Of a DNA stretch of 64,000 nucleotides, positions 5,029 to 24,303 are shown piece by piece. The DNA is from Candidatus Micrarchaeota archaeon (GTDB lineage Archaea; Micrarchaeota; Micrarchaeia; Anstonellales; Bilamarchaeaceae). Position 1 is the first letter of the stretch; each line of letters begins with the position of its first letter. Where the stretch lies: positions 128,047 to 192,046 of the forward strand of contig JBDRLQ010000003.1 of the NCBI GenBank assembly GCA_043812915.1, read 5' to 3'. The notes under the pieces are model-generated. The model worked only from the letters and a program-made list of their open reading frames with translations, was not told the origin of the DNA and did no database searches. The translations under genes and the position numbers were made by a program.

Positions 5029-6399
5029 ATGGGAAGGCTCACAACTTTTTGCGTGTTGAGTGGACAAACTGGGAATGCCCAACGAACAAAGCCGGAGCCA
5101 GCGGATGCCCGGCCAAGGAAGCTTCCAGGAACCATGAACCTGGTGATACCCGCCTCTTATCTCCATTCTCTTGATCCTGAGCGGATAAGGAAGCTGCGGG
5201 AGTTCGTTCCATGGCAGTCGTACAGGAAGTGCAGCCGCGGCCTCTACCGCTATTGCAAGAGGGAGCGTGGAAGATGGCATCTTGCGCGAAGGGTAGTTGG
5301 CGGCATGAGGCACAATGCATATGACGAAGAGGGGAAAGCGACGCCTTTAGTGGACCCGCTCCGTCACCTGGCGCCAGGCCTGCCTGCGGGATTGCGCGGA
5401 ATCATTGGTGCTGCCCCTAATGGGAGCATCCTTGAAATGGAGCTGCTTCATGACTCATTCAATATACATATAATGACCCCTGCCCACTCCGCCTGTGAAC
5501 TTGGGCCCCTTTCTGTTTTCGTGCATGTTCCTGTTGCTATGGATGACGGGGTTCCGTTCCGCTTTTTGCATGAGGATTCTCCGCTCGCGGGGATGCAAGC
5601 GCATCCTGACATCGCGCTGACAACGCACGGGCTGGGGGCGGAAACGCGCCCGCATGATCTGGAAGCGCACATCGTTGTCCATGCCGGGCACCATGCACAT
5701 CACGGGCACCAGGAGCATGCCCGCGCTGGGGAGCCCGAGGCGTTTGGCGTATTCTTCCGCGCTTTCCTCAGAATCCCCGGCCTTGATCCGTATGCGGTGT
5801 GCACCGGCGGGCATTTCCATGCCCACCACGAGCACCATGGGCATCACCCAACAACTCATCACGGCCTTCACCATCCGCACCCCGGGCACTATCATTCCGT
5901 TCATGCACATGGGCATAACCAAGGCACTCATCACGCAGGGCACAATGCCTATCCAGAGCACCAAGAGCACCGCCAGCACTCCGGGCATCCACATGAGCAT
6001 CATCAGACCCACCACTCGTCAGGGCGCCCTGGGCCGGGACATCATTCGCGCCATGGGCACCATAATCACGGCGCTAACCGCCATGATGCTCATCACAGTG
6101 CCCATCATGCGGGCCACAACTTGCCAGGGCACCGCGAGCGCCCTACTCATCACGGGCAGGAGCGCTCCCGCCATGAGCACGGATGGAGCCTGAGATTCTT
6201 TGATGCGGTCTGGGGGAAGAAGGTGGGAATTGACCCCACGGCAATCGCGGAAGCCTCAGCTGCAAAGGCAGAGGCAGCCGCGGCCCATGAAGCGTCAAAG
6301 CCGCCGGAAGTCTCGAGATATCATGTGCTAGGAAGGCGGGAAAGAAGGTTTGTGAACCTGAAGGTGACCAGCGCCGCGGACGCGATGCCGCCGCAGTAG
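5029..6399 (+). CDS. Hypothetical extremely histidine-rich protein (putative metal-binding)
   Basis: This 456-aa ORF fills the entire gap between the DHH nuclease and RNase Z genes and has its own TATA. By my count residues ~209-385 contain about 55 His (HHAHHGHQEH, GHFHAHHEHHGHHPTTHHGLHHPHPGHYH, and similar). Two other frames are also open across the biased segment, so the frame assignment is not certain. Confidence 0.45.
   Translation: MGRLTTFCVLSGQTGNAQRTKPEPADARPRKLPGTMNLVIPASYLHSLDPERIRKLREFVPWQSYRKCSRGLYRYCKRERGRWHLARRVVGGMRHNAYDEEGKATPLVDPLRHLAPGLPAGLRGIIGAAPNGSILEMELLHDSFNIHIMTPAHSACELGPLSVFVHVPVAMDDGVPFRFLHEDSPLAGMQAHPDIALTTHGLGAETRPHDLEAHIVVHAGHHAHHGHQEHARAGEPEAFGVFFRAFLRIPGLDPYAVCTGGHFHAHHEHHGHHPTTHHGLHHPHPGHYHSVHAHGHNQGTHHAGHNAYPEHQEHRQHSGHPHEHHQTHHSSGRPGPGHHSRHGHHNHGANRHDAHHSAHHAGHNLPGHRERPTHHGQERSRHEHGWSLRFFDAVWGKKVGIDPTAIAEASAAKAEAAAAHEASKPPEVSRYHVLGRRERRFVNLKVTSAADAMPPQ
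5653..6183 (+). repeat. Low-complexity CAY/ATG-rich segment encoding the His-rich region
   Basis: The compositional bias keeps three frames open: +1 is His-rich, 5654..6193 (+) is Thr/Met/Ile-rich, and 5455..6015 (-) is Met/Val-rich. Confidence 0.6.
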
Positions 6400-7628: not shown

Positions 7629-10583
7629 ATGGAACTGAACCTAAAGAAGATGGGGGCAATTGTTGCGGGTGCAACAATTTTGGCCAGCTCAGTCGGTTTT
7701 GCCGGACTTATGTTTGGTGACACCACGCTGGTGGACGACAACGGAGCCCCGTTAGCAAAAGTCGTCCTGGGATCAAAGAGTGCAGCACCTGATGGTGTGG
7801 CAGCTGGTCTCATCGCGGGAAAGATGGTGAGTGAATCGTATGCAGTTGAAGAACTCACCGCACAGGTCGCCGGAACCGCAACTTGCGGTGAGGGCAGCGG
7901 TACCGGAACAGGCACCGGAACTTGTGACATAGCCGATGAGAAAGCTAAACTCCAGATTACAGTACCTGGAAGCGCCATGGAGGGAACTTACACGGTCAAC
8001 AACTTGATCGGTGACTACCTCAACAGGAGGCTCAAGGACAGGGAAGACAATGTCGCAGGAGACTCTGACTCTGACTACCCGATGGGTGGCTCTGACGTCT
8101 CAGAGAACGCGAACCCGTTCACTGACGGCACTGGACCTGGCGGATCAATCGGCCCGAGCGAAACCTTCCTCTACAGGATTGATGGTGGAATGTTCTCTCC
8201 GTTCCAGACGCAGAACCTCGTCGATGACGATGCTGCGAGGAACTACGTCGAAGAGCAGAACATGTGGCTTCAGGGAGACAGCCACTACGATGAATCCCCA
8301 GAGGAAATCGTCGGTGACCTGAGATTCTTGGCATACACGCTCAAGTTCTCTGGCTCAGGTGATGACTTTGGTATCCCGGTGTGTACGACCCCTGATGGAA
8401 CAGACTATGCAGACTGTCTGCTTGGTGCAACTCCGCAGTCCCACTATGAAACCGCAAGCCACAAGGTAAGAGTATACTTCCTTGGCGAGCAGTGGGTCAT
8501 CAGCGACATGAGTCCGCCTTTAACGGCACTCACGTCCGAGACCTCGCTTGTTGATGGTGGATGGGTTAAGCTGGCAAAGGAGTCCATTTCTGGTGTTATC
8601 AACCAGGGTGAGGCACTTCCGGTCGATGACCTGAAGTTCCAGCTGGACGACCTTGAGGCACACGGTGACACGACCGCAGCCATTATCTCTGTCCTTGACG
8701 CGAACGGCAACGTTCTGAAAAAGGACAAGGTTGGTGAGGGTGATACGAAGGAATTCGCAATCGAGGGAACAACTTACAGGTTCCACGTATACAAGGTTGC
8801 ACCTGGTTACACCTTCGGCGCGAAGTGGGCTGATGTAGCTATCTACTCCAAAGAGCTCAAGCTCGAGGATGGACAGCAGCTGGACCCGGACTACGACAAC
8901 AACGAGTACTATGAGGTAGCTCTTGGATGGAAGAACAAGGGCGCTCAGGCTGGTGTTGACGAGCAGCCGGACTTCCTGAGGACCGCGGTGGTCTTCACAG
9001 AAGACATCGGATCAATCTCAAGCGGTGGCGAGGAGCAGTTCGAGGTTGGTGACTACCTGCCTATCGTGCAGGACCCGGTCGCCTGGAGGCTTACCTACCA
9101 GGGCCTGGACATTACCAACAGCGAGAGGACTTACCTTAGGTATGACCTCGAAAGGACAACTGACAAGACCCTTACGGCGAGCCACGGTCCTGTGACCGAG
9201 ACCGCAACTGGGATACGTGTTCAGTGTGACATCACAGCACCCTACGTAGAGGTCAAGTCTGGTGGAACTGGAACTATCTTCGAGATGACCGGTTCAACTG
9301 GTGAAGGTGACCAGGACACAACCCTTGCAGCAACCAGGTTCTATGTAGCAACCAATGGTGCAACTTGTGAAAATGACACAAGCGTTGTGGGTGGTGGATT
9401 CCCGGCTGGATGTCCTCTTGGTGTATGCCCTGCAGGTACTATCTTCATGACTCTCTCCCCGTCGTCCAACGACTATGGGCTCGAGGGCTATGATGAGGTT
9501 GCCGACGGCGGCGCAGCTTGTCCGAACGTATTCCTCAGCCAGGTGGTTGATTACAGCACCATTGGAGATGGTGACACCGACTGGTTGACTGGTGGTATGC
9601 TGGAAGTTTCAAGCTACCTCAGTGCGTCTCCTGCAGCTCAAGGATTTGCAGCAACGGACAACGGATGCAGTTACATGGGAGGCCTCAGGGCAGAGAACAC
9701 AACGCCCTGTATGTCCGACGGTGGAACTGACCCGAGGTGTTTCGGTGACGCGAGGCTGGTTGATGCAGCTGCCAATACCGACTGGTACTTCGGTCTGTCA
9801 GAGAAGGCAGGTGTGGATTCGTCCAACGACTTTGCGGACTACCACCTTGTAGGTCTTGACCTTGATGGTGGGGACTCAACCTTCAACTTCGACAGCCAGA
9901 CTGCCGGTGGTGACTACATCACCAGGGAGGACTACGAACTGTACATGTTCGCAGGACCTGTCTCAAACAGGGGCAACATCCAGACCCAGGAGGAAGGATT
10001 CATCTCTGAAAGGGGCTCTGTCTTCGATGACATCTCTGATACCTCAGTGAGGTATTACATGGCCGACGACCTTGCGTACTCTCAGTGGTACCTTTCGAGC
10101 GTTGAGCAGTCCGAAGCCGAGGCTGGCTCTGTAGTCAGGACCCTTGGTGAGGGCGAGGAAACAACCGTTAACGGCGTTACCGTTAAGGTCCTCGAAATCA
10201 CCGAGACTGTGCTGCCTTGTTCCGTTGGAACTGCAGCAACACCTGCGTGCGGACCTGCCGACATGAGTGGCGTTTCCGCGGTCATCATGCCGCAGAACAC
10301 CGCGACCGTAACCGCCTCGATTCCGTATGCATACAGCAGCTACGGGAACCTGGTTGTCCTTGATAAGGACGCGGTTGGCGTTAACACGCTCGTGTCTGTT
10401 GGTGGTGACAAGGTCAACACTGTAACCAAAGAGCTTCTCTCTGGTTCCGCAGTTGACTGGACAACTACCAAGAAGGTTGTGCGCGAAGTCGTTCAGGGCT
10501 CCAAGATTGTCGTCGCCGGTGCAGAATCCGAGGACACACTCGCAGCAGCTCAGGACTTCGTTAACCAGCTGAGGAGGGTGTAA
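7629..10583 (+). CDS. S-layer protein (Methanococcus-type N- and C-terminal regions)
   Basis: 984 aa. It has an N-terminal signal (LKKMGAIVAGATILASSVGFAG) followed by VVLGSKSAAPDGVAAGLIAGKM. The C-terminus reads LVSVGGDKVNTVTKELL...KIVVAGAESEDTLAAAQDFVNQL, resembling conserved archaeal S-layer termini. There are many Cys pairs and N-x-S/T sequons, and a strong T-rich terminator downstream. Confidence 0.75.
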   Translation: MELNLKKMGAIVAGATILASSVGFAGLMFGDTTLVDDNGAPLAKVVLGSKSAAPDGVAAGLIAGKMVSESYAVEELTAQVAGTATCGEGSGTGTGTGTCDIADEKAKLQITVPGSAMEGTYTVNNLIGDYLNRRLKDREDNVAGDSDSDYPMGGSDVSENANPFTDGTGPGGSIGPSETFLYRIDGGMFSPFQTQNLVDDDAARNYVEEQNMWLQGDSHYDESPEEIVGDLRFLAYTLKFSGSGDDFGIPVCTTPDGTDYADCLLGATPQSHYETASHKVRVYFLGEQWVISDMSPPLTALTSETSLVDGGWVKLAKESISGVINQGEALPVDDLKFQLDDLEAHGDTTAAIISVLDANGNVLKKDKVGEGDTKEFAIEGTTYRFHVYKVAPGYTFGAKWADVAIYSKELKLEDGQQLDPDYDNNEYYEVALGWKNKGAQAGVDEQPDFLRTAVVFTEDIGSISSGGEEQFEVGDYLPIVQDPVAWRLTYQGLDITNSERTYLRYDLERTTDKTLTASHGPVTETATGIRVQCDITAPYVEVKSGGTGTIFEMTGSTGEGDQDTTLAATRFYVATNGATCENDTSVVGGGFPAGCPLGVCPAGTIFMTLSPSSNDYGLEGYDEVADGGAACPNVFLSQVVDYSTIGDGDTDWLTGGMLEVSSYLSASPAAQGFAATDNGCSYMGGLRAENTTPCMSDGGTDPRCFGDARLVDAAANTDWYFGLSEKAGVDSSNDFADYHLVGLDLDGGDSTFNFDSQTAGGDYITREDYELYMFAGPVSNRGNIQTQEEGFISERGSVFDDISDTSVRYYMADDLAYSQWYLSSVEQSEAEAGSVVRTLGEGEETTVNGVTVKVLEITETVLPCSVGTAATPACGPADMSGVSAVIMPQNTATVTASIPYAYSSYGNLVVLDKDAVGVNTLVSVGGDKVNTVTKELLSGSAVDWTTTKKVVREVVQGSKIVVAGAESEDTLAAAQDFVNQLRRV

Positions 10584-10700: not shown

Positions 10701-11570
10701 ATGGTCAATTCTACTACTGAATCAAAGAACGAATCAAGGAAGCCAATCCAGAGGAAGCTCCAGAATGGTGCAGTTGGCGAGAAGGAGGACTCCGAGAATG
10801 GGGATTCCAAGAGGAAAAGCATCCTCAAGGCGCTCCCGCTGGTCTCGGCTGTCGCTGCGGCGAGCCTTTCATGCCATCTTGATGTCCTTCCGGCAGACGC
10901 TGGCCACGACGCTGGGCAGGACTCGGACGCCCCTGCCGATGCGGACCATGCTGATGCGGATGAGATTGAGGCTGATGTGGAAGCCGATGGCGACCTTGAT
11001 GCTGACATTGACGCGGACCTGGATGTTGATGCGGAGTCTGACGGCGATGTTGAAACCGATGGCGATGCGGATGCAGATGCCGACATGGAGCTTGACGGGG
11101 ACGTTGAGGCTGAGGGCGATGCTGATGTGGATGCAGATGCCGACGCGGATGCAGAGCTCGATGGCGACCTTGACGGCGATGCTGAAACCGATGCAGAAGC
11201 AGAGCTCGACGGTGATGCCCTGACTGATGGCGATGTTGAGGCAGATTCTGAAGCTGACGAGGAAGTTGATGGCTGCCCGTTAATCACGAACGATTCTGAG
11301 CGGGTGACGCTAACTGCGCTGGGCAGTGTGGTTCCAGTCGGAGCCTCGAACGTATCAATAATCCATCAGGGCGAATCCGGCCACATTGTGACCGTGAGGC
11401 TGGTTCTGACGTCCGACCCCTCAGTATTTATCTCGGATGCGGTTCCCTTGGGGAGCGGCCCTGGCCCGGTTGAAATCCCGATGTACTGCGGGGCCACTGC
11501 CACGGCAACGAGCATGACCGTAATAGGTGATGACCTCACAGTAACGATGGCAATAACCGGTGCGGACTGA
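10701..11570 (+). CDS. Hypothetical lipobox-bearing poly-Asp (alternating D-X) protein, paralog A
   Basis: 289 aa. It has a charged N-terminus, then a hydrophobic segment ending in ASLSC, then about 130 aa of D-X alternation (DADADADMELDGDVEAEGDADVDADADADAELDGD), then a ~95-aa non-repetitive C-terminal domain shared with the next gene. The opposite-strand and +2 ORFs are shadows of the repeat. Confidence 0.6.
   Translation: MVNSTTESKNESRKPIQRKLQNGAVGEKEDSENGDSKRKSILKALPLVSAVAAASLSCHLDVLPADAGHDAGQDSDAPADADHADADEIEADVEADGDLDADIDADLDVDAESDGDVETDGDADADADMELDGDVEAEGDADVDADADADAELDGDLDGDAETDAEAELDGDALTDGDVEADSEADEEVDGCPLITNDSERVTLTALGSVVPVGASNVSIIHQGESGHIVTVRLVLTSDPSVFISDAVPLGSGPGPVEIPMYCGATATATSMTVIGDDLTVTMAITGAD
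10881..11270 (+). repeat. GAY-NNN periodic coding repeat (alternating Asp array) in paralog A
   Basis: Asp falls at nearly every second codon over about 130 codons. All three forward frames and the reverse strand stay open. Confidence 0.8.
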
Positions 11571-11600
11571 TTCTTTTTTCTCTTTTTATCTTCATTTTCC
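11571..11600 (+). terminator. T-rich terminator after paralog A
   Basis: ttcttttttctctttttatcttcatttt directly after the stop at 11570. Confidence 0.5.
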
Positions 11601-11635
11601 CATATAATTTGTTTATTTGTGGGGAGTTATGACCA

Positions 11636-11691
11636 ATATTTATAAATGTTGTTATACATTAAACATTCTGATTTAATTTCAAAAAGGAGGG
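11636..11691 (+). promoter_or_regulatory. TATA-like box (atatttataaatg) plus Shine-Dalgarno-like GGAGGG upstream of paralog B
   Basis: TATA at 11636-11648. GGAGGG at 11686-11691 lies 7 nt before ATG 11699. Confidence 0.45.
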
Positions 11692-11698
11692 ATATTGG

Positions 11699-13531
11699 AT
11701 GAGTGGAAATGAAGTGATGAGGCAAGAGAGGACGCTACGGAATGGACAGATTGAGGGCCCAGCAAGAAATCCTGGCAGGTTTGAGAAAGCCGCGAAGAAA
11801 GTCGCGCCGTTTTTTGTCGGCACCACGCTTTTGGCCGGGGCGCTCAGGTGTAGCAGCAGCGGGGAAACCGGGCAGCCGGATGCAGGAACAACTGTTGAGC
11901 TTTGCTCGCAGGAGCCTGGCACATCGTGCAGCGCGCAGACATTCAATACTTTCCTTAACCAGGTAGCGGCCACTTTCAACCACGGCAACGGGCCAGTGGC
12001 ATTCGCCGTCTCACCTTCACTCAATGTGGAGACTCTTGATGTGATTGACCCCGAATCCGGAGTAATCAGCACCAAGAGAATCGTTTCAGCAAGGATTGCG
12101 ACCTTTGTGAGGGTCGATGTCCCAGAAGAGCGCGATGCCGGCGCTGATGCCGGCGACCTTATCTGCGGTGGCAGATGGGAAGTCGTGGAGCAGGCGAACG
12201 TTTATTCAGAAGAGGACGCAAGGGAGATGCGCGCACAGGGATTCGACGCTGTCGGAACCAGGCGCTACAACGCCCTTGGGACCGGGTATGATGTTACCCT
12301 CCTGAACCTTGATGAGGCAGTCCTCACTGATGAAGATGGCAATCCGATTCCTGATGCGGAGGGCAATATGCAGAGGACCTACGCGGTGGGCTTGAGGATT
12401 GACCCGATTTGCGATGGCGAGACCGTCGGCCCGACTGATGGCGATGCGGACGCAGACCTAGACGGAGATGTTGAGGCAGGCGGAGATGTCGACGCAGATG
12501 CGGACATGCATGATGCCGATGTCCTGCCCGATGGCGATATCGTAACTGATGGCGATGCGGATTTGGATGCCGACACGGACAGCGTGGTGGACGCTGACGG
12601 CGATGGCGGTGTCGTCTGCGAGACGAGGGATCACACATGCAACACCGAAAGGCTTGCTGAAGGATGGCTCTCTGCCGGAGAATATTTCATAATGGGAACC
12701 CGCAGGTTCCAGCTTGTCGAGCTTGAGACTGTCGGCGCATATGTGGAGGCAACCTACCGGGTCACCGACAACTGCGCAACCCCGATTCCGGGGCTTGGAG
12801 GGAGCGCCCACATAGGCGAGGAAACGGTACTTGAGAGCGCAGGTGAGGAATCATCCTACACAGTCAGGATAACTGATGTCGTAGGCGGCTCTGTCAGGTT
12901 CGAGGTTGATGAGAACTGCCCGGGAGATGTCACTGATGGCGATGCTGATGTTGACGCTGACGCGGATGCCGACATGGGCCTTGACGGGGACGTTGAGGCT
13001 GACGGCGATGCTGATGTGGATGCGGATGCAGACGCTGATTCGGAACTGGATGCGGATTCCAGCCTTGACAGTGATGTTGAGGCTGACAGCGATGCAGACG
13101 CTGACGCGGATTCAGGATTTGACGCCGATGCCGAAACCGATGTGGATGGGGGTTCGGATGCCGATGCAATAATCCCTGATGCCGATACGGACTTCGATGC
13201 GCCTCTAGGGGCATGCGACGGACTGACAAACGGGGAAGAGAGAATCCGTGTGTTTGCCGAAGTTCCGCGCCACGCACCAGTATCTCCTGATCAGGTTGAA
13301 GACAGTCATATCTCAGTCTATCCGGTCTCAACTGACGACCGGAGCGCCGTTCTAAGGATGGTCCGGACTGATGACCTGTCTGTTGCGGTCTCCGGAGACT
13401 TCGAAGTGTGGGTGGCAACCCCCATAAGGGTGGGGGTTTGCGGCGGAGACGCAACCTTCACAGCAACCACTGTCCTGGGCCGTCAGGTTGAGAGCACTGT
13501 CTCGATTACCGGACTTCCGCCAAGGCCATAG
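11699..13531 (+). CDS. Hypothetical lipobox-bearing poly-Asp (alternating D-X) protein, paralog B
   Basis: 610 aa. It has an N-terminal hydrophobic segment ending in AGALRC, two globular Cys-containing domains, two D-X arrays, and a C-terminal domain alignable to that of paralog A (C..LTN..ER...CG..AT.T..TV.G....ITG). Confidence 0.6.
   Translation: MSGNEVMRQERTLRNGQIEGPARNPGRFEKAAKKVAPFFVGTTLLAGALRCSSSGETGQPDAGTTVELCSQEPGTSCSAQTFNTFLNQVAATFNHGNGPVAFAVSPSLNVETLDVIDPESGVISTKRIVSARIATFVRVDVPEERDAGADAGDLICGGRWEVVEQANVYSEEDAREMRAQGFDAVGTRRYNALGTGYDVTLLNLDEAVLTDEDGNPIPDAEGNMQRTYAVGLRIDPICDGETVGPTDGDADADLDGDVEAGGDVDADADMHDADVLPDGDIVTDGDADLDADTDSVVDADGDGGVVCETRDHTCNTERLAEGWLSAGEYFIMGTRRFQLVELETVGAYVEATYRVTDNCATPIPGLGGSAHIGEETVLESAGEESSYTVRITDVVGGSVRFEVDENCPGDVTDGDADVDADADADMGLDGDVEADGDADVDADADADSELDADSSLDSDVEADSDADADADSGFDADAETDVDGGSDADAIIPDADTDFDAPLGACDGLTNGEERIRVFAEVPRHAPVSPDQVEDSHISVYPVSTDDRSAVLRMVRTDDLSVAVSGDFEVWVATPIRVGVCGGDATFTATTVLGRQVESTVSITGLPPRP
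12437..12610 (+). repeat. Alternating Asp array 1 of paralog B
   Basis: DGDADADLDGDVEAGGDVDADADMHDADVLPDGDIVTDGDADLDADTDSVVDADGDGG. Confidence 0.8.
12926..13198 (+). repeat. Alternating Asp array 2 of paralog B
   Basis: DGDADVDADADADMGLDGDVEADGDADVDADADADSELDADSSLDSDVEADSDADADADSGFDADAETDVDGGSDADAIIPDADTDFD. Nucleotides 12962-13023 are about 90 percent identical to 11073-11134. Confidence 0.8.
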
Positions 13532-13560
13532 TTTTCCTTTAGTTTTTTTCCTTTATTTAT
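13532..13560 (+). terminator. T-rich terminator after paralog B, merging into the TATA-like ctttatttat of the next gene
   Basis: gttttcctttagtttttttcctttatttat. ATG 13586 lies about 27-30 nt from the AT-rich core. Confidence 0.45.
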
Positions 13561-13585
13561 CCAAACGGGTTGGGTGTTGCCTTCC

Positions 13586-15070
13586 ATGAGCTCAAAACTA
13601 CAAAAAAGCCGGAATCTGTCTACAGAAATCAGGAACCCGAATCGCAAGTTCGGGACACGCACAACCCTAAAGGAGTCCATTCTTCTTTCTGCCGCTTCAA
13701 TTGCGGCGACAGTTATATTCACGCTCAGCCCTGCATACGCGCAGAGCGCCAAATGCAGCGCGCGCGTCGTTCCTGGGGAAATTGGAGAGCGCTTCTCGCT
13801 AAAGACAAGCGGAACGAAAGTTGAAGGGCTGACACTGAGGTTTTCCATCCCTGTCAAAGGCTCGCACGGGGAGCTGGCAATCAGCGGGCCCTTCGCGGAC
13901 AGCCTTGTCACAATGCCTGAAGATGTAAGATTCACCGTCCTGAGCAGCAACCTCACAAAGGGCAGGACCCTTCTTTCCTCATCGCGCAGGGCGACATTCG
14001 GATGCATTAGCGGGGATTCAGAAGCCCCGAGCCCTGTTCCAATAGAATCAATCCAGAAGCTTGTTCGTGAAGCTGGGAGCAGGATGAAGCAGCTTGATGC
14101 AACGAGGAAACTAACAGGGGTAAGCTCAAAGACCAAGGGCGATGTTTCAACATTCATATCAAAGCGCGGGCCCCTGATGTCCGCAATCAAGGGCCGTGAT
14201 ATCCCTGGTTTGCAGAGGGCAATCGAGCAGGCAGATTCGCACCTTCTGACCATGAGGTCTGAAGTGGATGCATCGGCCCAGGCGATAAAATCAGAGGCGC
14301 TTGATTTGTCCAGGCAGCTCCGCGAAGCTGCCTCAGAGCTTCCGGAAGGGAGGCAGAAAAGGGCTGCAATCCAATTGGCAGACTCTGTTGAGGCGGAGGC
14401 GGGCCGGGACCAGGTTCGCGTAAGCGCGCTTACAAAGGGCATGGCGAGCATTGGGCGCGCGATTCCGCAGGCCCGGGATGCGGCCGACGCTGCGCGGGAG
14501 AGGCAGGCGACCGCAGACGCAGCTGAAAAGGCACAGGCGGATGCCGCTGAAAAAGTTCGTGTTGAAGCAAGGACGGAAGCTGCAAAAGTGCATGGAATGG
14601 ACAGATGCACGGGGGATTTCCCAGTAAGCATAATCACAGGAAAGGGCGCGGTGGAGAGATATAAGCTCGCTGTTCCGCTTAAGCTTGTCGTGGAGTCCGG
14701 AGGCACTGCGACAAAGGATGGCACGGACCACCCGATAAGGGCCGTCCTGGAGGTTAGCGCCAAATCCATCCTTCCTCAGCATGTCAAAGGCACAATCGAA
14801 TCTGCCACAAAGACAATCAGAAGGAGCCTTGATACAAGATGCCCGGCTGGAAATCCGGCTTCAATCGAAGTAATCGAAACGAATCTGGGAGTTGCCATCA
14901 TGGGACTCCGAAACAAGATGATTAGCAAAATCGATGGCATTACGGCTGATGAGGATGGCAATCCGGAGCGCCCTCTGCTCCTGAAAGTGAGGGGGCTTCT
15001 TGCCGGCAGGTCGAAGGCCGAGGAAGATGCCGCAATATCTGCCGCCAAGCAGAAAGCAGGTGTCCGGTAA
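13586..15070 (+). CDS. Hypothetical secreted protein with a central Ala/Glu/Arg/Lys coiled coil
   Basis: The track ORF starts at GTG 13574. ATG 13586 fits the TATA spacing. The signal-like segment is ESILLSAASIAATVIFTLSPAYAQS. Beta-rich flanks surround a central helical region (ATADAAEKAQADAAEKVRVEARTEAAKV). The 428-aa minus ORF 13483..14769 is a Ser/Ala-rich shadow. Confidence 0.5.
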   Translation: MSSKLQKSRNLSTEIRNPNRKFGTRTTLKESILLSAASIAATVIFTLSPAYAQSAKCSARVVPGEIGERFSLKTSGTKVEGLTLRFSIPVKGSHGELAISGPFADSLVTMPEDVRFTVLSSNLTKGRTLLSSSRRATFGCISGDSEAPSPVPIESIQKLVREAGSRMKQLDATRKLTGVSSKTKGDVSTFISKRGPLMSAIKGRDIPGLQRAIEQADSHLLTMRSEVDASAQAIKSEALDLSRQLREAASELPEGRQKRAAIQLADSVEAEAGRDQVRVSALTKGMASIGRAIPQARDAADAARERQATADAAEKAQADAAEKVRVEARTEAAKVHGMDRCTGDFPVSIITGKGAVERYKLAVPLKLVVESGGTATKDGTDHPIRAVLEVSAKSILPQHVKGTIESATKTIRRSLDTRCPAGNPASIEVIETNLGVAIMGLRNKMISKIDGITADEDGNPERPLLLKVRGLLAGRSKAEEDAAISAAKQKAGVR

Positions 15071-15115
15071 GCCCTTTTTTCTTTGATAATGCCTTTCAGG
15101 CCTTGGCGCAAGGCC
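15071..15115 (+). terminator. T-tract followed by a perfect 7-bp hairpin (ggccttg-gcg-caaggcc)
   Basis: gcccttttttctttg at 15071-15085. The inverted repeat at 15099-15115 lies directly before the next TATA. Confidence 0.4.
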
Positions 15116-15116
15116 G

Positions 15117-15127
15117 CTTTTAAATAT
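15117..15127 (+). promoter_or_regulatory. TATA-box-like element (cttttaaatat) upstream of the lysine-free ORF
   Basis: Its centre is about 26 nt upstream of ATG 15148, so the mRNA is predicted to be leaderless. Confidence 0.5.
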
Positions 15128-15147
15128 CTTTGTTCCTTATCTTTTTC

Positions 15148-17238
15148 ATGGCAGCGCCACCACAACCTCGCGGAATACAGTGCACTGTTGCTATCCAGGA
15201 AATGAATGCCCAGGAGGCCTCCAGGGCAATGGCGAACCCGTTGCAGCGCGAGGGGGAGCGGATTTCAGTCCGTCTGGTTGTCCCGGCAAGGACCGGCTAT
15301 CTTTCCGCCGAGATCCCGGCACAGGCGGTGAATGAGGTGCTTGATTGGGCCTCACATATCCAGAGCCCGCAGGATAGGCGGGATTTTATCAGCCAGTGGC
15401 TCAGCGACAATATCGCGCGCATCAGGCGTGCCCATGACGGCGCCGCCAGGGATGCAACTGCCTTCGATTTCAGCGTTGTTCCTGTCCGGGAAGTGCGCAT
15501 TGTGCGCAGTATCGAGGATATAGTCCCAAGTCTGACTTTCGATCCCACCGCCATTGCCGCGCTCGTTGCCCGGGATGGCCAGGTGGCGGTAGCGAGCCGG
15601 GACACGCGCATATTCTCCGAGAGACGGCAGGCGCTTACTACTTTGGGCAGGGGAATCGGCCGCCTGCTCAGGCTCCACCAAAGAACCAGCGGAGGGCTCA
15701 ACCAGGATCAGATCAGGCTTCTTATCGGCCAGGTCCCTGTCGATCAGATAGAAACACTCCTCCGGCCGCTCGGCCTTGAGCGCAGGGACAGTGCAGCACT
15801 GCAGGAACTGCTTGCAGGTGGCCAGAGGACAACCGCCGGCGATGTCGTGATGGTGCCCGGAATCATCGTGAGAATAAACCAGCTGATGATGGACGAGCCT
15901 GAAAGGGACAGGATTTCCCCGGTCACCCTTGACCGGCGCGCCGCTGATGAGGCAAGGGAGCGCATGACTGAACTCCGGCGCATCGGAAGCGCTGAGGGGA
16001 GAGCGCTTGCCACCAGCATCGAGCGGGCCATCGGAACAGTCCGGAGGCCGCAGCTGCTTTCACTTATAGAGGATGCCGACAGGCTAATCAGCGCCGCTGG
16101 GAGCAGGGACGAAGCTGCTGAAGTCGCTGCAGTGAGGCAGGCAAGCGAGCCTGCACGGACTGCCGCCTCCCGCCTCAGGGAACTTGCCAGGGATACGAGG
16201 GTCGGAAATCTCATGGCATCTGCAACCGTCGCTGCCCTCTCAATCCAGCAGGAACTCGGGCGCGAGGCTCCAAGGTCATCCAGGCTAAGGCAGCTCACAA
16301 CAGAAGCACAGTTACTAATCACGCGCATGGAAGCTGCCATAGCATCGGCCGAAGAGGCTGCTGGAAGGCAGGCTTTGCTTACAGAAAGGCGGGGAATCGC
16401 GCAGGCCAGGATAGCAACCATAGACGGGCTGCAGTCCCAGGATGGGGTTACTCCGGCGCACAGGAGGTCTGCAGCAGCCCTGCTAAGCCAGCTCCGCGCC
16501 GCAAGGGAAGGAACGGATGCCGCACTCCTGCAAAGGAGAGTTGCCGAGGCGGACACCCTGATTGCGCTTTTGCGCGCTGACATTGACAGGCATGCTGCCC
16601 GGGCCCCGCCCGCAGCGCCAACCGGCACCCTGAGGCAGCCCACTGCCGTTGCGGCAGAGCACAGCCAGCTCCTGCAGGAATTCGCCAGGCTCCTCCATCG
16701 GCGCACTGACTTCTACTCCCGCCGCCGGGAAAATCCGATAGTGCTTCACCTTGCGAACCTGTCAGAAACCTACCGGGTTGATGCTGGCGATGTCCTCTAT
16801 GACGGCGGAGTGAGGGAAGCATCCCTCGATTATGAGGGACAGACATTCAGGTATCTTACATTCATTACCGCGGCCGATGTCAGGCAGGTCTATCGTGGCC
16901 TTCCTGAGAGATACAGGACAGCTGCACGGGATGCCCGATTCCGTCCTGCCGGTGCTTCTGCCCTCAGCATGCTAGCGCTTCCTTCGGCCCGTCAGGGCGC
17001 TTCTCCTACTGTGGACGGAGAATTGCTCGAGCAGATACGCACCAGGCTCACAACGCAGTATCTTGCCCAGGCCCGCCGCGCTCTTGAGGCGGCAGGGCTC
17101 AATATGGGTACAAGGATTCAGCTGGAAGGCGGTGCGGAAAGGACCATCGGCCAGATTGTCCAGGACCAGGTTACCGAGGCGGTCCGCGGCGTGCTCCAGG
17201 ATATCACCACAGTTACTACAATAAGGATGGAGCCGTGA
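15148..17238 (+). CDS. Hypothetical large Ala/Arg/Leu/Glu-rich helical protein with no lysine
   Basis: The track ORF begins at TTG 15130. ATG 15148 fits the TATA. I find no K anywhere in the 697-aa product and see no signal peptide. The region is GC-rich and carries a 320-aa shadow ORF on the minus strand. I recognise no family. Confidence 0.55.
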   Translation: MAAPPQPRGIQCTVAIQEMNAQEASRAMANPLQREGERISVRLVVPARTGYLSAEIPAQAVNEVLDWASHIQSPQDRRDFISQWLSDNIARIRRAHDGAARDATAFDFSVVPVREVRIVRSIEDIVPSLTFDPTAIAALVARDGQVAVASRDTRIFSERRQALTTLGRGIGRLLRLHQRTSGGLNQDQIRLLIGQVPVDQIETLLRPLGLERRDSAALQELLAGGQRTTAGDVVMVPGIIVRINQLMMDEPERDRISPVTLDRRAADEARERMTELRRIGSAEGRALATSIERAIGTVRRPQLLSLIEDADRLISAAGSRDEAAEVAAVRQASEPARTAASRLRELARDTRVGNLMASATVAALSIQQELGREAPRSSRLRQLTTEAQLLITRMEAAIASAEEAAGRQALLTERRGIAQARIATIDGLQSQDGVTPAHRRSAAALLSQLRAAREGTDAALLQRRVAEADTLIALLRADIDRHAARAPPAAPTGTLRQPTAVAAEHSQLLQEFARLLHRRTDFYSRRRENPIVLHLANLSETYRVDAGDVLYDGGVREASLDYEGQTFRYLTFITAADVRQVYRGLPERYRTAARDARFRPAGASALSMLALPSARQGASPTVDGELLEQIRTRLTTQYLAQARRALEAAGLNMGTRIQLEGGAERTIGQIVQDQVTEAVRGVLQDITTVTTIRMEP

Positions 17239-17280
17239 TTTTCCGGCATCTCTTTATTCTTTTTATCCCTAATCATCAGC

Positions 17281-17847
17281 ATGGCAAACAGGGCTACTAT
17301 CCAGGAAGAGGTTGTTCGGACTGATTTGGATTTTGTTCCGGTTGATACCAGTTCGACGCAGGAGCAGCGCAGGGAAACCGCGCTGACGCTTGTTGATGAA
17401 CTGCAGGGAAGGCTCCATTCAGCCAGGAATCTGACGAATGCGGACCGGCTCAGGATATTCGATTCCTTATCGGGTCTTGAGGGCGCTGTAGCAGCGGATG
17501 ACAAGGATGGGATGATGGAAGAAATGGCAACTGCGCGGGCCCTTCTGCGCAGGCTTCCGCTGCCACATCCAGGCGGGTACCCTCCCAATGTGGAAACAGG
17601 CACCTTTGAAGAGCAGGATTTCAGGGACACGGCCCAGATGTATGAAGTTAACCTGAGCGGGCAGATTGATGAACTGCGCCAGAGCGGACTTCGGCTCGTT
17701 GTAATGAATTACGCAGAGGAGATTATCAGGCGGCTCCACAACGAGTCCGGGCGCCAGCCGCTGAACAGAACCGCGATAAACGAGCTCATCCAGGAGGCTG
17801 AAGGCATCTCCAGGCAGATTGAGGAAATCATCACTGCAAATCGCTAG
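17281..17847 (+). CDS. Hypothetical 188-aa helical protein with a single lysine
   Basis: Preceded by a T-rich/TATA-like tctttattctttttatccc at 17250-17268. Its composition resembles the upstream lysine-free protein. I recognise no family. Confidence 0.45.
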   Translation: MANRATIQEEVVRTDLDFVPVDTSSTQEQRRETALTLVDELQGRLHSARNLTNADRLRIFDSLSGLEGAVAADDKDGMMEEMATARALLRRLPLPHPGGYPPNVETGTFEEQDFRDTAQMYEVNLSGQIDELRQSGLRLVVMNYAEEIIRRLHNESGRQPLNRTAINELIQEAEGISRQIEEIITANR

Positions 17848-17925: not shown

Positions 17926-18657
17926 ATGGGCAGGTGCATCCGCTGCGGCAGGGAAGGCCATATGGAATACGGCAGTGATGGCCAGGCCTACTGTGGTTCC
18001 TGCGTGTTCTATGGGATGAACAAACCATGCTGGAGGTGTGGGATGTATGTTCCTGCATCAGAGCTCCAGCAGTACAAGGGGCAGTGGATGTGCCCGATAT
18101 GCATAGGGGATGCCAGGGCGGCGGACGCGCGCGTGAGCTACAAAGAGCCGACATACAAGAAAAATGATTATCCTATGCAGGTGCATTCCTACGAGGAGAC
18201 TTGCGAGAAGTGCGGAAGAACTCTTGTCACGGTGTACATCCTCAACGGGAAGAAGCTCTGCTGGACATGCCTGCATGAGGAGCAGGACAAGTGGACAATC
18301 GTTGGTGGGGAGAAGCCGCCGACCGTGCCTATGAAGATGACTGTCGAGGCGCAGAGGAAATCCGCGCTCAGGAAATTCTTCGAGCACGTATTCTCCGAAT
18401 TCCTCGCATTGTTCGGGGTGAGGTGGAAGCCCCGGGAACCAGTCTCGCAGGTTGTCGCGCTCAAGGCAACGCAGTCAAAGAGGCCCAGGCGCTCCTTCGG
18501 CAGGCCGATGGTGTCTGGGATGAGGAAGGAGCGCGAGGATGCGGTTCCAAGCACAGAGGGGATAATCAAGGGGAAGCCGAAAACGCCCCGCAAGAAATCC
18601 TCCGACGTAACCTTCCCGGAATACCAGAAAAAGGACAAAAAGAAGGATAAAAAATGA
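17926..18657 (+). CDS. Hypothetical multi-zinc-ribbon protein with a Lys-rich tail
   Basis: The track ORF starts at GTG 17881. ATG 17926 (MGRCIRCG) fits the TATA. CxxC pairs are CIRCG..CGSC, CWRCG..CPIC and CEKCG..CWTC. The C-terminus reads KGKPKTPRKKSS..KKDKKKDKK. Confidence 0.55.
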   Translation: MGRCIRCGREGHMEYGSDGQAYCGSCVFYGMNKPCWRCGMYVPASELQQYKGQWMCPICIGDARAADARVSYKEPTYKKNDYPMQVHSYEETCEKCGRTLVTVYILNGKKLCWTCLHEEQDKWTIVGGEKPPTVPMKMTVEAQRKSALRKFFEHVFSEFLALFGVRWKPREPVSQVVALKATQSKRPRRSFGRPMVSGMRKEREDAVPSTEGIIKGKPKTPRKKSSDVTFPEYQKKDKKKDKK

Positions 18658-21924: not shown

Positions 21925-24165
21925 ATGAGAGGAGGATACTATCTTGCGGCACTATTCCTGCTGCTTTTCGCATCTGTTTCTGTAGCTGCCCCAGTGGACC
22001 TGTTTCTATCTATTGACAACGGGAACGGGTTCGCCGATTCGGCGTCTGTCACACTGACCATCAACGGAAGCGCGGACGCGATGATATGCGCAATTTCGAA
22101 TGACGGCTCAACCTACGAGAACACAACCGAGGTGCTGACTTTCCCAGCGTCCATGGACATGGCATGGAGCCTTTCAGCTGGCGATGGGGAGAAGACAGTG
22201 CACATGAAATGCGCGAATGCCACGATTAATGCGACATGGTCGCCAGATGTCACTGACACGATAGTATTGGACACCGCCGCCCCCGAAGCCGATACTCCAA
22301 CTCCGGCCGATGGCGGAGCAACCTCAGACACCACCCCGCTCATTTCCATCCATATAACCGACCCTGGCGCGGATCCCTCTGAAATAAATGAGGGGAGCAT
22401 CGAGCTGGAGTTTGATGGGGAGAATGTCACGCACTCCTACAATCCAAGCACAGGGAGCGTGACGTATACTCCGACGGCCGCTTTAGGTGCCGGGACAATA
22501 GAGGCCAGGATATGGTTCGCGGACAACGCTGGCAATGATGCGCAGTTCTCATGGGACTTCACAATAAGCTCCGGGCCCACGCTCTCAGATTTCACTCCAG
22601 AGGACGACTTGGTGACTGATGCGGCCCGCCCGACGATATCGGTAACTGTGGGCGACCCTGGAGTCGGCATAAACACCAGCAGGACCGTATTCAAGATTAA
22701 TGGCGCTGATGAGGCGGATGAGACGCACTACTCGGCATCATCAGGTCTGCTCTCCTACAGCCCGCCCTCGAACCTTGCGGACGGCAATTACACTATCCAG
22801 GTCACAGTATATGACACAAGCGACATGTATGCGATAGCCGAGTGGATGTTCACGGTCGACCGGACCGATCCCTCAATAACGCTGCCCATGCCATCGGACC
22901 TTGAAACATTGTCCTCCCTGAGCGAGATATCCGTTACCGTTGAGGATTCCGGCTCTGGCCTGAACATGTCCACCCTAGAAATGATTGTAGATGGGGTTGA
23001 CGTTATGGACGGTGCCGATTTCGACTCCGATTCCGGAAGGCTCTCCTTCGAGTATGTGCAGGGCCTTGAGGCTGGCATCCACACCATCGAGGTGACCGTC
23101 GAGGACAATGCAGGCAATGGTCAGTCATATTTCTGGAGCTTCACGCTTGAGGCCAAGAAGCCCGTCGTATCAGGCATGTCCCCCAAGGATGACTCGGTAA
23201 TCTCAGACCTGATGCCCGAGATTTCCGCGATTCTCAGTGACAGCGGAACTTCCGGGCTTGACCTGGAGACCATCCGGCTGTATGTCGACAGCGATGAGGT
23301 CACTTCTGATTCCACATTTGATGTCAGCAGCGGAAAGATTTCTTACACCCCCGAGGAAGAGCTTGGGGAAGGGAAGCACACCGTGCGCGTGCGCGTCTCC
23401 AACAACGCAGATTACGAGACTGATGCGAGGTGGGAATTCAACATAGATTCCACGCTTCCCGAGAGGGCGACAAGCCTGCTCGTAACCCACGAGGGTGGCG
23501 TCAATACGCTCACATGGAAAGGCTCAACATCCGATGATGTTGCCGGGTACAAGATTTTCGCCTCAACAACAAAGTTCACTACGACCAGCGGAATCGGCTC
23601 TGTCGGGACCGTTGATTCGGACACCTATGAATTCACCCATACTGGTGGGGGTGTGAGGTACTATTACGCGATTGTTGCCTATGATGAATCCGGCAATGAG
23701 GGCGAGGCTGCCTTCGCCACGAACTGCGGAACGTACAAAAACGGCGTCTGGAATGACCTCGAGTGCTGCTGGGATTCGAACTGCGCATCCGGAAACTGCG
23801 ATGTCGGAACCAACACCTGCGCTGAAGGGGATGATTCAGAGCCCGAAGACCTCATAACCGCGGCAGAGGCTTCGGACAAAATCGATGAGGCTGAGGAAGC
23901 CCTTCTTGATGCCGCAGTTGCCGGAAAGGACATCACAATCGCAGGTTCGCTTATTGACCAGGCCAGGAGCGCTTTCAATGTGGGCAACTACCCGCAGGCG
24001 TACGAGCTTTCAGTCCGTGCCCTGAACGCGCTCGCGGCCGCCCCGCAGGAGGGCCTTCCAGAAGCAACGGAAGAGGGCTCCGGAAAAGAGCCGAACCCAT
24101 GCTGCCCGAGCATGTTCGTCATTCCACTGCTCCTTGTTTCAGCTCTTTTGTTCAGGAGAAGCTGA
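21925..24165 (+). CDS. Secreted surface protein with tandem Ig-like domains, an FN3-like domain and a C-terminal membrane anchor
   Basis: 746 aa. It has a signal peptide (YYLAALFLLLFASVSVAAP) and an N-terminal Ig-like domain. Four ~100-aa repeats share the pattern P.IS..v.D.G.Gi......DG......fd..SG.lSY.P...L..G.HT..V.V.D.AGN....W.F. These are followed by an FN3-like segment, a Cys-rich segment and a terminal CCPSMFVIPLLLVSALLFRRS. Confidence 0.65.
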   Translation: MRGGYYLAALFLLLFASVSVAAPVDLFLSIDNGNGFADSASVTLTINGSADAMICAISNDGSTYENTTEVLTFPASMDMAWSLSAGDGEKTVHMKCANATINATWSPDVTDTIVLDTAAPEADTPTPADGGATSDTTPLISIHITDPGADPSEINEGSIELEFDGENVTHSYNPSTGSVTYTPTAALGAGTIEARIWFADNAGNDAQFSWDFTISSGPTLSDFTPEDDLVTDAARPTISVTVGDPGVGINTSRTVFKINGADEADETHYSASSGLLSYSPPSNLADGNYTIQVTVYDTSDMYAIAEWMFTVDRTDPSITLPMPSDLETLSSLSEISVTVEDSGSGLNMSTLEMIVDGVDVMDGADFDSDSGRLSFEYVQGLEAGIHTIEVTVEDNAGNGQSYFWSFTLEAKKPVVSGMSPKDDSVISDLMPEISAILSDSGTSGLDLETIRLYVDSDEVTSDSTFDVSSGKISYTPEEELGEGKHTVRVRVSNNADYETDARWEFNIDSTLPERATSLLVTHEGGVNTLTWKGSTSDDVAGYKIFASTTKFTTTSGIGSVGTVDSDTYEFTHTGGGVRYYYAIVAYDESGNEGEAAFATNCGTYKNGVWNDLECCWDSNCASGNCDVGTNTCAEGDDSEPEDLITAAEASDKIDEAEEALLDAAVAGKDITIAGSLIDQARSAFNVGNYPQAYELSVRALNALAAAPQEGLPEATEEGSGKEPNPCCPSMFVIPLLLVSALLFRRS
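22270..23445 (+). repeat. Four tandem ~100-codon Ig-like domain repeats within the surface protein
   Basis: Protein-level repeats at approximately aa 116-213, 214-311, 312-408 and 409-507. They are divergent at the nucleotide level. Confidence 0.6.
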
Positions 24166-24182: not shown

Positions 24183-24303
24183 AGCCTCAGGGGGTATTCG
24201 AAACCCCGACCTCCCGCTTTCCTTGGAGGAGGGCAGTGAACGCAGTTCACAAAAACCTCCCGCTTACAAGGCGGGCGCTCTGACCAGGCTGAGCTACTGA
24301 GGC
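24183..24303 (-). tRNA. tRNA-Thr (anticodon UGU) with a 46-nt intron
   Basis: Manual fold of the minus strand: acceptor GCCTCAG/CTGAGGC, D arm GCTC-AGCCTGGTCA-GAGC, anticodon arm CCCGC-CTTGTAA-GCGGG, variable AGGTC, T arm GGGGT-TTCGAAT-ACCCC, discriminator T. The mature length is 75 nt and no CCA is encoded. With a canonical 37/38 splice the intron is 24219..24264. It contains a 6-bp hairpin, GTGAAC-TGC-GTTCAC. Confidence 0.8.

Follow-up and report, generated by a model that had tools for sequence, protein, structure and literature searches.

What do five unassigned genes beside the surface-layer (S-layer) gene of a micrarchaeal chromosome encode, and are they native to it? The stretch of DNA analyzed here, referred to as the window, comprises 64,000 nucleotides of contig JBDRLQ010000003.1 from a Candidatus Micrarchaeota archaeon (assembly GCA_043812915.1, positions 128,047 to 192,046 of the forward strand). 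Within it, five open reading frames (ORFs) stand in a row on the + strand after the S-layer gene: O1 (10701-11570), O2 (11699-13531), O3 (13586-15070), O4 (15148-17238), and O5 (17281-17847). A sequence-only reading had described them with these coordinates as orphan genes of a possibly acquired island, and the gene calls in a public Candidatus Micrarchaeota record (GCA_043826765.1, contig JBDRPU010000014.1) are identical. All five also occur in a near-identical twin metagenome-assembled genome (MAG), likewise labeled Candidatus Micrarchaeota. They are real genes, with homologs at 31-52% identity and confidently predicted domains in AlphaFold2 (AF2) models. Judging from sequence comparison, O1-O5 appear to be a locally enlarged version of a module that is specific to Micrarchaeota and sits in a slot between the S-layer gene and the genes for a zinc (Zn)-ribbon protein and GINS. 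The signal-less paralog in this module is under strong, lineage-variable selection against lysine.

The conservation of the locus was assessed in 80 Micrarchaeota loci of 20 kb fetched around eIF2-alpha. The conserved order was RNase Z, S-layer, slot, Zn-ribbon, GINS, L44e, eIF2-alpha, and PAC2. The slot measured 127 bp to 4.5 kb in 27 loci, versus 7.3 kb in the window, and it mostly held two genes in either order, one encoding an exported protein (type A) and the other a signal-less protein (type B). This pair was present in about 24 of the 27 loci. Long forms of the pair occur in a context like that of the window in four loci of differing base composition. Locus L089 (GC 0.47) runs from RNase Z and the S-layer gene through homologs of O1, O2, O3, and O4 (6e-30, 4.5e-44, and 2.5e-93 for O1-O3). 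In L085 (GC 0.48) and L088 (GC 0.45), homologs of O3 and O4 are followed by the Zn-ribbon gene and GINS and, in L088, farther on by DUF763, as in the window. The fourth locus, L083 (GC 0.63), encodes an acidic protein, then homologs of O3, O4, and O5, then the Zn-ribbon protein. The sequence-only reading had proposed looking for the genes beside S-layer genes in related genomes, and their co-occurrence in L089, L085, L083, and L088, in the same order at the same locus, agrees with its view that they are kept together. In the sub-clade of the window, the spacers of both members of the pair became long helical rods, and O1, O2, and O5 were added.

We classify A and B types as paralogs because both fall within one hidden Markov model (HMM) family of 41 members. 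O3 is the A type and O4 the B type of this Micrarchaeota-restricted family, a relationship that the orphan-gene reading had missed, along with the family-wide and GC-independent lack of lysine described below. A metagenome scan was run with the O3 and L085 homolog pair. An HMM of short A-type proteins matched residues 27-151 of O3 (5.5e-10), and the C-domain of the O3 family aligned with that of short B-type proteins (hhalign E = 7.5e-5, probability 62%). Type A proteins carry a signal followed by Cys, and the signal-less type B slot proteins carry the motif RGEVRSITLTIPLLSDRNSYLVVRLP. As the sequence-only reading had stated, three products have signals and two do not: one hydrophobic segment, N-terminal and followed by Cys, is present in each of O1, O2, and O3, and O4 and O5 have none at the N terminus. 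In O3 (494 amino acids), the signal (residues 30-50) has an AYA|Q site and is followed by two domains, N and C, with a helical spacer of about 190 amino acids between them. Four Cys residues of O3 (C57, C140, C341, and C419) are invariant. Its homologs outside L089 matched at E = 6e-93 (L085), 6e-36 (L083), and 8e-31 (L088).

O4 (696 amino acids) has a head-rod-tail layout, no signal, 94 Arg, and no Lys. It is 52% identical over 479 amino acids to protein P0002, which has one Lys and 98 Arg. A word-indexed search with full-length O4 returned only O4 itself and P0002, the latter at 49% identity. A profile search of 1.84 billion representatives returned 19 proteins, all of the same family; the long ones have 826, 1055, and 979 amino acids (120-145 Arg), and the rest, at about 300 amino acids, share with O4 only its N-terminal domain of about 110 amino acids. 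The N-terminal 135 amino acids of O4 alone found no match in an index of 5.8 billion proteins. A profile search of the protein index returned 28 clusters, all of them free of Pfam domains; those with a name were each labeled "hypothetical protein" and assigned to Candidatus Micrarchaeota or Micrarchaeia. With tblastn, the N-domain was matched at the syntenic place in 8 loci. Two divergent long slot proteins, L023 6647-8095 (482 amino acids, 2 Lys, 48 Arg) and L035 5525-7993 (822 amino acids, 3 Lys, 66 Arg), come from genomes of 39% and 43% GC; they carry a YLV..(I/V)P motif, fall below the family HMM threshold, and are probably further lysine-free members.

The AF2 model of O4, built from 19 sequences, had a mean predicted local distance difference test score (pLDDT) of 72.9. 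Its family-defining alpha/beta N-domain (residues 10-110; 15175-15477, +) was modeled at pLDDT 86-92, and P57, V61, R77, W84, F106, and P127 were invariant in it across the 19 sequences. After a helical region at residues 133-250 comes a rod of long alpha-helices (residues 258-485; 15919-16602, +), with helices at 258-279, 282-294, 300-369, 375-429, 436-454, and 458-485 and pLDDT up to 97; the tail was poorly defined. In the model of a short ortholog, P0018, the N- and C-domains (pLDDT about 90) are joined by a disordered Pro-rich linker. Taken together, the models point to a common plan for the pair, with the N-domain as head, a Pro-rich or helical rod as spacer, and the C-domain as tail. We regard the O4 rod as a spacer that need not polymerize, because short orthologs have a disordered Pro-rich linker in its place. 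We also considered a ribbon-helix-helix identity for the N-domain, which was rejected: the AF2 strand lies in an intrachain sheet, and Foldseek gave no ribbon-helix-helix protein and nothing at E ≤ 1e-3.

Neither fold nor family searches connected these proteins to a described system. Foldseek, which the sequence-only reading had suggested running, found no match with E ≤ 1e-3 for the models of O4 and the short ortholog P0018 against the PDB or for the short model against BFVD. Its top matches were nonsignificant and were not used; they included the DnaK substrate-binding domain or lid (E = 0.3), the eIF2-alpha C-domain (E = 0.2), and ABM monooxygenases. Sequence and profile searches of the PDB gave matches at chance level only (E ≥ 0.06). 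For O1-O5, no curated threshold was reached in Pfam, NCBIfam, PHROGs, or PADLOC, where the sub-threshold matches lay on low-complexity or Asp-X stretches or on coiled coils. Matches of O3 to JetC, LmuB, and Talin, for example, fell on its coiled coil and were judged compositional. The earlier statements that the five genes belong to no known family and are undescribed therefore stand: all named relatives are hypothetical proteins of Micrarchaeota, and no relative was found in Pfam, the PDB, or Foldseek.

The absence of lysine, on which the sequence-only reading had touched only briefly, is the most striking property of the module, although not of all its products. Against a background of 7.5% Lys in the window proteome, O4 has 0 Lys in 696 residues (P = 2.6e-24), O2 has 4 in 610 (33 Arg; P = 6e-16), three of these Lys being in the N-terminal tail, O5 has 1 in 188 (P = 7e-6), and O1 has 7 in 289, all within the first 43 residues. 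O3 is normal in this respect, with 35 in 494. The description of the region as Asp/Ala/Arg-rich and almost devoid of Lys thus applies to O1, O2, O4, and O5 but not to O3. O4 has no in-frame AAA or AAG codon, yet the two alternative frames contain 18 and 20 of them; this in-frame-only absence indicates that selection acts on the protein. Long homologs of O4 share the trait (0/826, 0/1055, 1/979, and 1/661 Lys), and a content of 0-1 Lys is kept in homologs at 24-52% identity. Type B proteins with 0-1 Lys and 11-17% Arg were found in at least 17 lineages with genomes of 39-63% GC, the short ones in genomes of 39-61% GC; examples are those of L021 (39% GC; 0 Lys, 32 Arg) and L031 (47% GC; 0 Lys, 48 Arg). 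Roughly one type B protein in three has 5-10% Lys, with few in between. Lys content is normal in the exported type A proteins.

Charge is retained in these proteins, and only Lys is removed. Lys plus Arg amounts to 14.3% in lysine-free versus 15.4% in lysine-containing orthologs, Asp plus Glu makes up 10.2% in both, and Arg occupies 34% of the Lys columns in the lysine-free orthologs. In a rough neighbor-joining tree of the N-domain, lysine-free and lysine-containing states were interleaved, which suggests several switches among orthologs. The trait is also rare outside the family. A count over 1.3 Mb of Micrarchaeota loci covered 857 ORFs of at least 200 amino acids, with a median Lys content of 7.6%. 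No more than 0.5% Lys was present in 30 of them; 19 of these belong to the O4 family, and most of the others are antisense shadows. GC bias was rejected as the cause of the loss, given that genomes of 39-48% GC have lysine-free orthologs and that the neighboring genes encode 7-10% Lys. A lysine desert has been defined as a stretch without Lys of at least 150 amino acids or at least 50% of the protein length (PMC10665810). By this length, the deserts comprise all 696 residues of O4, residues 127-610 of O2, residues 44-289 of O1, and residues 76-188 of O5 (60% of its length). Among O4 orthologs the desert is also conserved, with normal Lys in about a third.

The remaining three proteins differ from the pair in layout. 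O1 (289 amino acids) appears as an exported polyanionic protein with 18% Asp, composed of a Lys-rich N-terminal tail, a hydrophobic segment at residues 40-58 that ends in Cys58, Asp-X repeats, and a C-terminal domain of about 95 amino acids. The repeats are encoded by a degenerate GAT-GCN array (10932-11277, +) with a period of 6/12/18 nt. Its homolog in L089 lies directly after the S-layer gene and has an LAAGC lipobox, with all Lys before the lipobox. O2 (610 amino acids) has the same N-terminal plan (Cys51), followed by Cys-rich globular parts, two Asp-X blocks (encoded at 12434-12611 and 12911-13191), and an O1-like C-terminal domain. The C-terminal domains of O1 and O2 are 34% identical over 154 amino acids (BLASTP E = 2e-6), and the two proteins are paralogs that share one architecture. 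Besides that in L089, a homolog of O2 was found in L086 (E = 7e-29). O5 (188 amino acids) is helical, signal-less, and Lys-poor (1 Lys, 20 Arg). A full-length homolog directly follows the O4 homolog in L083 (31% identity, E = 1e-14); searches of the L085 and L088 lineages yielded none. O5 also resembles, weakly, a rod segment of P0015, a long type B protein (E = 0.009). A 20-nt string encoding (T/A)DEDGNP is common to O2 (12327-12346) and O3 (14946-14965) at 95% identity (family D6) and may be chance or a short shared motif. A match of O1 to Bactofilin (PF04519; 22.7 bits versus a cut-off of 27.9) lay on the repeat region and was judged compositional, as were the matches to DUF2807, TrAA12, MSCRAMM, and phrog_9992, all on Asp-X repeats.

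The S-layer gene itself (7629-10583, +) is the conserved upstream anchor of the module. Its product of 984 amino acids belongs to a Methanococcales-type family (PF05124, 45.4 bits versus a cut-off of 23.9; TIGR01564, 25.7 bits versus a cut-off of 25) and is 50-53% identical to the products of S-layer genes in 27 Micrarchaeota loci. Apart from the N-terminal signal (residues 8-29), the product has no hydrophobic segment, and it lacks a C-terminal anchor. The protein has 957 amino acids in the twin MAG, within the same 90% cluster, which is a length polymorphism within the species. It has been proposed that the S-layer of Micrarchaeota may need a second, stalk protein, in a study that also measured the pseudoperiplasm at 20-25 nm (Gfrerer et al., bioRxiv 10.1101/2021.04.28.441871). 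A helical spacer of 190 residues or a Pro-rich linker of 60-100 residues may, by our own arithmetic, be of that order.

With some reserve, we lean toward the view that O1-O5 are a native, enlarged module with a role in envelope architecture, in which O4 is a lysine-free cytoplasmic scaffold. The envelope role proposed by the sequence-only reading is plausible from the export signals, the conserved Cys of the exported members, and the fixed adjacency to S-layer genes in many genomes. Where the products are located, how they connect to the S-layer, and why lysine is avoided we infer as follows. O1-O3 would act outside the membrane, beneath the S-layer. There, O1 and O2 would form a membrane-tethered polyanionic brush that binds cations, and O3 would serve as a spacer or stalk between the membrane and the S-layer protein, which has no anchor. 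The partner in the cytoplasm would be O4, possibly together with O5, as a long-lived scaffold of rod-like shape. Replacement of its Lys by Arg would shield it from tagging or chemistry directed at lysine.

Several observations count against this proposal. The slot is almost empty in L024, L036, and L042 (gaps of 127-302 bp). The canonical C-domain motif GGxGTxxxPY is undetectable in O4, whose tail was poorly modeled. What would connect O1-O5 to the S-layer is the adjacency of their genes and nothing else. A cytoplasmic paralog is an odd partner for an exported protein, and O4 could be exported by another route. About a third of type B proteins have normal Lys, so lysine-freeness is not needed for the core function. 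The tree from which switches were read was built by rough neighbor joining, carries no support values, and is only a lead. Genes for ubiquitin-like proteins, E1, or JAMM proteins were not seen within the 64-kb window. Finally, O3 and the S-layer protein keep their Lys, and O1 and O2 lie outside yet are Lys-poor, so that any single reason for avoiding Lys fits poorly.

The pattern of lysine loss is also what would be expected if the proteins met a host. By this account, the main rival, O4 and O5, and perhaps the mature parts of O1 and O2, would be exposed at the archaeon on which the micrarchaeal cell lives or be delivered into it, building or passing through the contact between the two cells. 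Lys would be avoided because of tagging of the SAMP/Urm1-proteasome type or Lys-specific proteases in the host. Avoidance that is all-or-none, lineage-variable, and interleaved on the tree is what pressure from a host or partner would give, and four of the five products are Lys-poor on whichever side of the membrane they lie. Charge is kept while Lys is lost, the module adjoins a surface-layer gene, and its sequences diverge fast and vary in spacer length. Ubiquitin-like tagging of lysines exists in archaea (PMC4895103, PMC4569737). However, O4 and O5 lack an export signal, the neighboring genes encode no secretion system, the MAG of the window has no known host, the N-domain is well conserved, which is atypical for effectors in an arms race, and exported O3 keeps 7% Lys. 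We consider this account unlikely, if by no means far-fetched. Much the same holds for a bolder synthesis, to which we would give a minor chance: that this is the first lysine-desert family to be described from archaea and marks lysine-directed tagging or attack at the interface between DPANN symbionts and their hosts. O4 and its partners would then be built for host contact or entry, shedding all Lys in lineages in which the host or their own proteasome system attacks lysines and regaining it where such pressure is lacking, with the exported paralog as S-layer stalk.

Lysine-free proteins could instead be useful because they can be made when lysine or tRNA-Lys is limiting, as in starvation or under attack by an anticodon nuclease. 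DPANN archaea rely on partners for amino acids, and both the all-or-none behavior and the restriction of the AAA and AAG deficit to the coding frame would fit. Yet Lys is retained in O3, encoded at the same place, and in the S-layer protein, whose abundance is far greater, Arg is a costly substitute, and the PADLOC scan showed no anticodon-nuclease or related gene. We rate this explanation as quite improbable.

Base composition was what had suggested a horizontally acquired island encoding a cell-cell interaction system. Some of the evidence does point that way: GC in O1-O5 is raised by roughly 1 to 3.6 standard deviations, amino-acid usage is unlike that of the flanks, and homologs in public data are very few. 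The shift is real but modest. GC in O1-O5 is 0.55-0.61, compared with 0.533 ± 0.022 in the 42 other genes of the window (z = +2.0, +2.0, +1.0, +3.6, and +0.8, in order), so that only O4 is a clear outlier from a stretch described as clearly GC-richer. The excess lies in codon positions 1 and 2, and GC at third positions (GC3) is below background (z = -0.6 to -2.0). Arg codons in O1-O5 are dominated by AGG, like those in the rest of the window. Codon usage is thus not foreign, as it would have been under the earlier reading, with GC3 lower rather than higher and native Arg codons. Homologous modules in genomes of 45%, 47%, and 63% GC likewise have high GC1 and GC2 and low GC3, and module GC tracks genome GC. 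We attribute the GC shift to Asp/Ala/Arg/Gly-rich, Lys-free proteins and not to foreign DNA.

As a separate observation, GC3 in the module was below that of the housekeeping neighbors in most lineages examined (L089, L085, L088, L031, L021, and the window), for example 0.25-0.34 versus 0.44-0.52 in L089 and 0.57-0.64 versus 0.67 in the window. The offset was small in L083, and L021 had no flanking genes measured. Low GC3 may reflect weaker codon selection or faster evolution.

Position within the chromosome also argues against acquisition. The conserved order at the same locus in relatives, with GC ranging from 0.45 to 0.63, contradicts horizontal transfer, and the paralog pair is phylum-wide. 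Signs of mobility were absent as well: no integrase or transposase domain was detected among the window proteins (Pfam, NCBIfam, PHROGs), repeat analysis found no att-like direct repeats at the module, and no tRNA borders it, the only one (24183-24303) being 6 kb away. O1-O5 are native and vertically inherited, and an acquired island is scarcely credible. A GC bump that stems from amino-acid usage can mimic such an island.

Least of all do we credit a mobile element, provirus, or defense locus, or noncoding DNA with chance ORFs: the five orphan proteins, the weak phrog_9992 and JetC (PADLOC) matches, and the long antisense ORFs might suggest one of these, but the PHROG matches lie on Asp-X repeats and the PADLOC match on a coiled coil, all of them weak, tblastn against 50,697 phage records gave no match, nothing in BFVD matched with E ≤ 1e-3, and the chromosomal place is conserved, with protein identity of 31-52% and confident AF2 domains. 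The antisense ORFs themselves (13483-14769 and 15744-16706, both on the - strand) are present as reported. They had been read as typical of GC-rich coding DNA; we take them for shadows and not genes, because the sense frames are conserved at the protein level.

The signals around the genes were as the sequence-only reading had described. TATA-like boxes precede the starts at -39 (O1), -60 with GGAGG (O2), -35 (O3), -31 (O4), and -22 (O5), and runs of 5-7 T follow all five stop codons. One T-rich motif recurs in every intergenic region of the module (family D5). The TATA box of O4, TTTTAAATAT (15117-15126, +), lies about 30 nt 5' of the ATG within the string TTTTAAATATCTTTG(T/C)T(C/A)CTTATC(T/C)TTTT(C/T)ATG, which is nearly the same in the window (15116-15147), L002 (40-73), and L089 (11485-11516); the O4 proteins of these three lineages are only 31-52% identical. 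A TATA box about 30 nt 5' of the ATG was found for every signal-less paralog examined, a spacing that suggests leaderless transcripts.

The downstream boundary of the module is also conserved. It is formed by the gene for a Zn-ribbon protein (17926-18657, +) with six CxxC pairs (12 Cys) and a Lys-rich tail. Homologs were found in 36 Micrarchaeota loci, each time between the module and GINS. The protein matched no Pfam family and had no relative in the PDB, where its sequence matches were at chance level only. That it is always found next to the lysine-free protein could be meaningful or incidental. Beyond it in the window come GINS, L44e, S27e, eIF2-alpha, Nop10, and PAC2, and the flanks as a whole consist of core genes (RNase Z, GINS, L44e, eIF2-alpha, RNA polymerase, NusA, MCM, and aminoacyl-tRNA synthetases).

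Farther out, we noted three other features. A 456-amino-acid orphan at 5029-6399 (+; GC 0.60, GC1 0.71, 2.4% Lys, 8.1% Arg) has no Pfam or NCBIfam match and is conserved in L089 (E = 1.6e-96) at the same place between a DHH-family gene and RNase Z; it is a second unassigned gene of odd composition near the module. At 21925-24165 (+) lies the gene for an acidic, Lys-poor protein of 746 amino acids (2.0% Lys, 9.1% Asp) with faint Big-like domain matches, which is conserved in L088 (E = 4e-199), L003, and L004 and is probably another surface protein of the lineage. The tRNA at 24183-24303 (-) was called by Rfam at 55.8 bits; an intron is probable, since the match spans 121 nt and the model has 71 positions. 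Across the whole window, ARAGORN called none.

Micrarchaeota are small, mostly uncultured symbionts whose surface biology is little known. For them, the O3-type exported paralog would be a concrete candidate for the missing S-layer stalk. The signal-less paralog is among the cleanest cases of selection against one amino acid, with up to 1055 residues free of Lys in AT-rich genomes. This lack points to a lysine-specific process in the cells or their hosts, be it tagging, proteolysis, or chemistry, and natural pairs of orthologs with and without lysine offer a means to find that process.

The module can be compared with several known systems. O1 and O2 share with the Ser-Asp repeat adhesins of staphylococci (SdrC, SdrD, ClfA, and ClfB; MSCRAMM) long acidic dipeptide-like repeats between a signal and a folded domain. 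The NCBIfam scores, however, were 45-53 bits versus cut-offs of 999-2500, with the alignment confined to the Asp-X repeats. In addition, the repeat is Asp-Ala/Gly/Val and not Ser-Asp, LPXTG and an A-domain are missing, and the proteins are archaeal; the resemblance is compositional only. O4 recalls coiled-coil cytoskeletal proteins (crescentin, Ccrp, and intermediate-filament-like proteins) in that long helices, over about 230 residues, lie between its folded head and its tail, but it has no sequence similarity to them.

For O3, the nearest counterpart is SlaB, the stalk of Sulfolobales. This second S-layer protein has a coiled coil by which the lattice is anchored. Like SlaB, O3 is exported, has a long spacer (coiled coil or Pro-rich in the family), and is encoded near the gene of an S-layer protein that has no anchor of its own. 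The O3 family has no match in Pfam or the PDB, and these searches showed no similarity to SlaB in sequence or fold. Its hydrophobic segment is N-terminal only and may be cleaved at AYA|Q, whereas the anchor of SlaB is C-terminal, and O3 has a cytoplasmic paralog encoded alongside, which SlaB does not.

The loss of lysine has two precedents. In AB toxins (ricin, cholera toxin, and Shiga toxin), the A chains are poor in lysine and in this way escape ubiquitination. As in O4, Lys is lost selectively while Arg is kept, in a toxin that must survive lysine-directed degradation; O4, however, has no catalytic domain and no B-chain partner, and its entry into another cell is hypothetical. Closer are the lysine-desert proteins, known among components of the eukaryotic ubiquitin-proteasome system and in the proteomes and phages of pupylating Actinobacteria (PMC10169902, PMC10665810). 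Archaea are absent from the lysine-desert literature that we found, these two papers covering eukaryotes and pupylating Actinobacteria; the word "archaea" is not used in PMC10665810. The O4 family differs in being archaeal (DPANN), in a trait that flips between orthologs, and in a link to tagging that is only putative. It resembles the known deserts in its long, conserved stretches without Lys (696 amino acids in O4 and up to 1055 in homologs), in the transfer of positive charge to Arg, and in its enrichment in Ala, Gly, and Pro. Compared with those of Actinobacteria, the deserts of the O4 family occur in genomes of 39-48% GC, so that high GC does not explain them.

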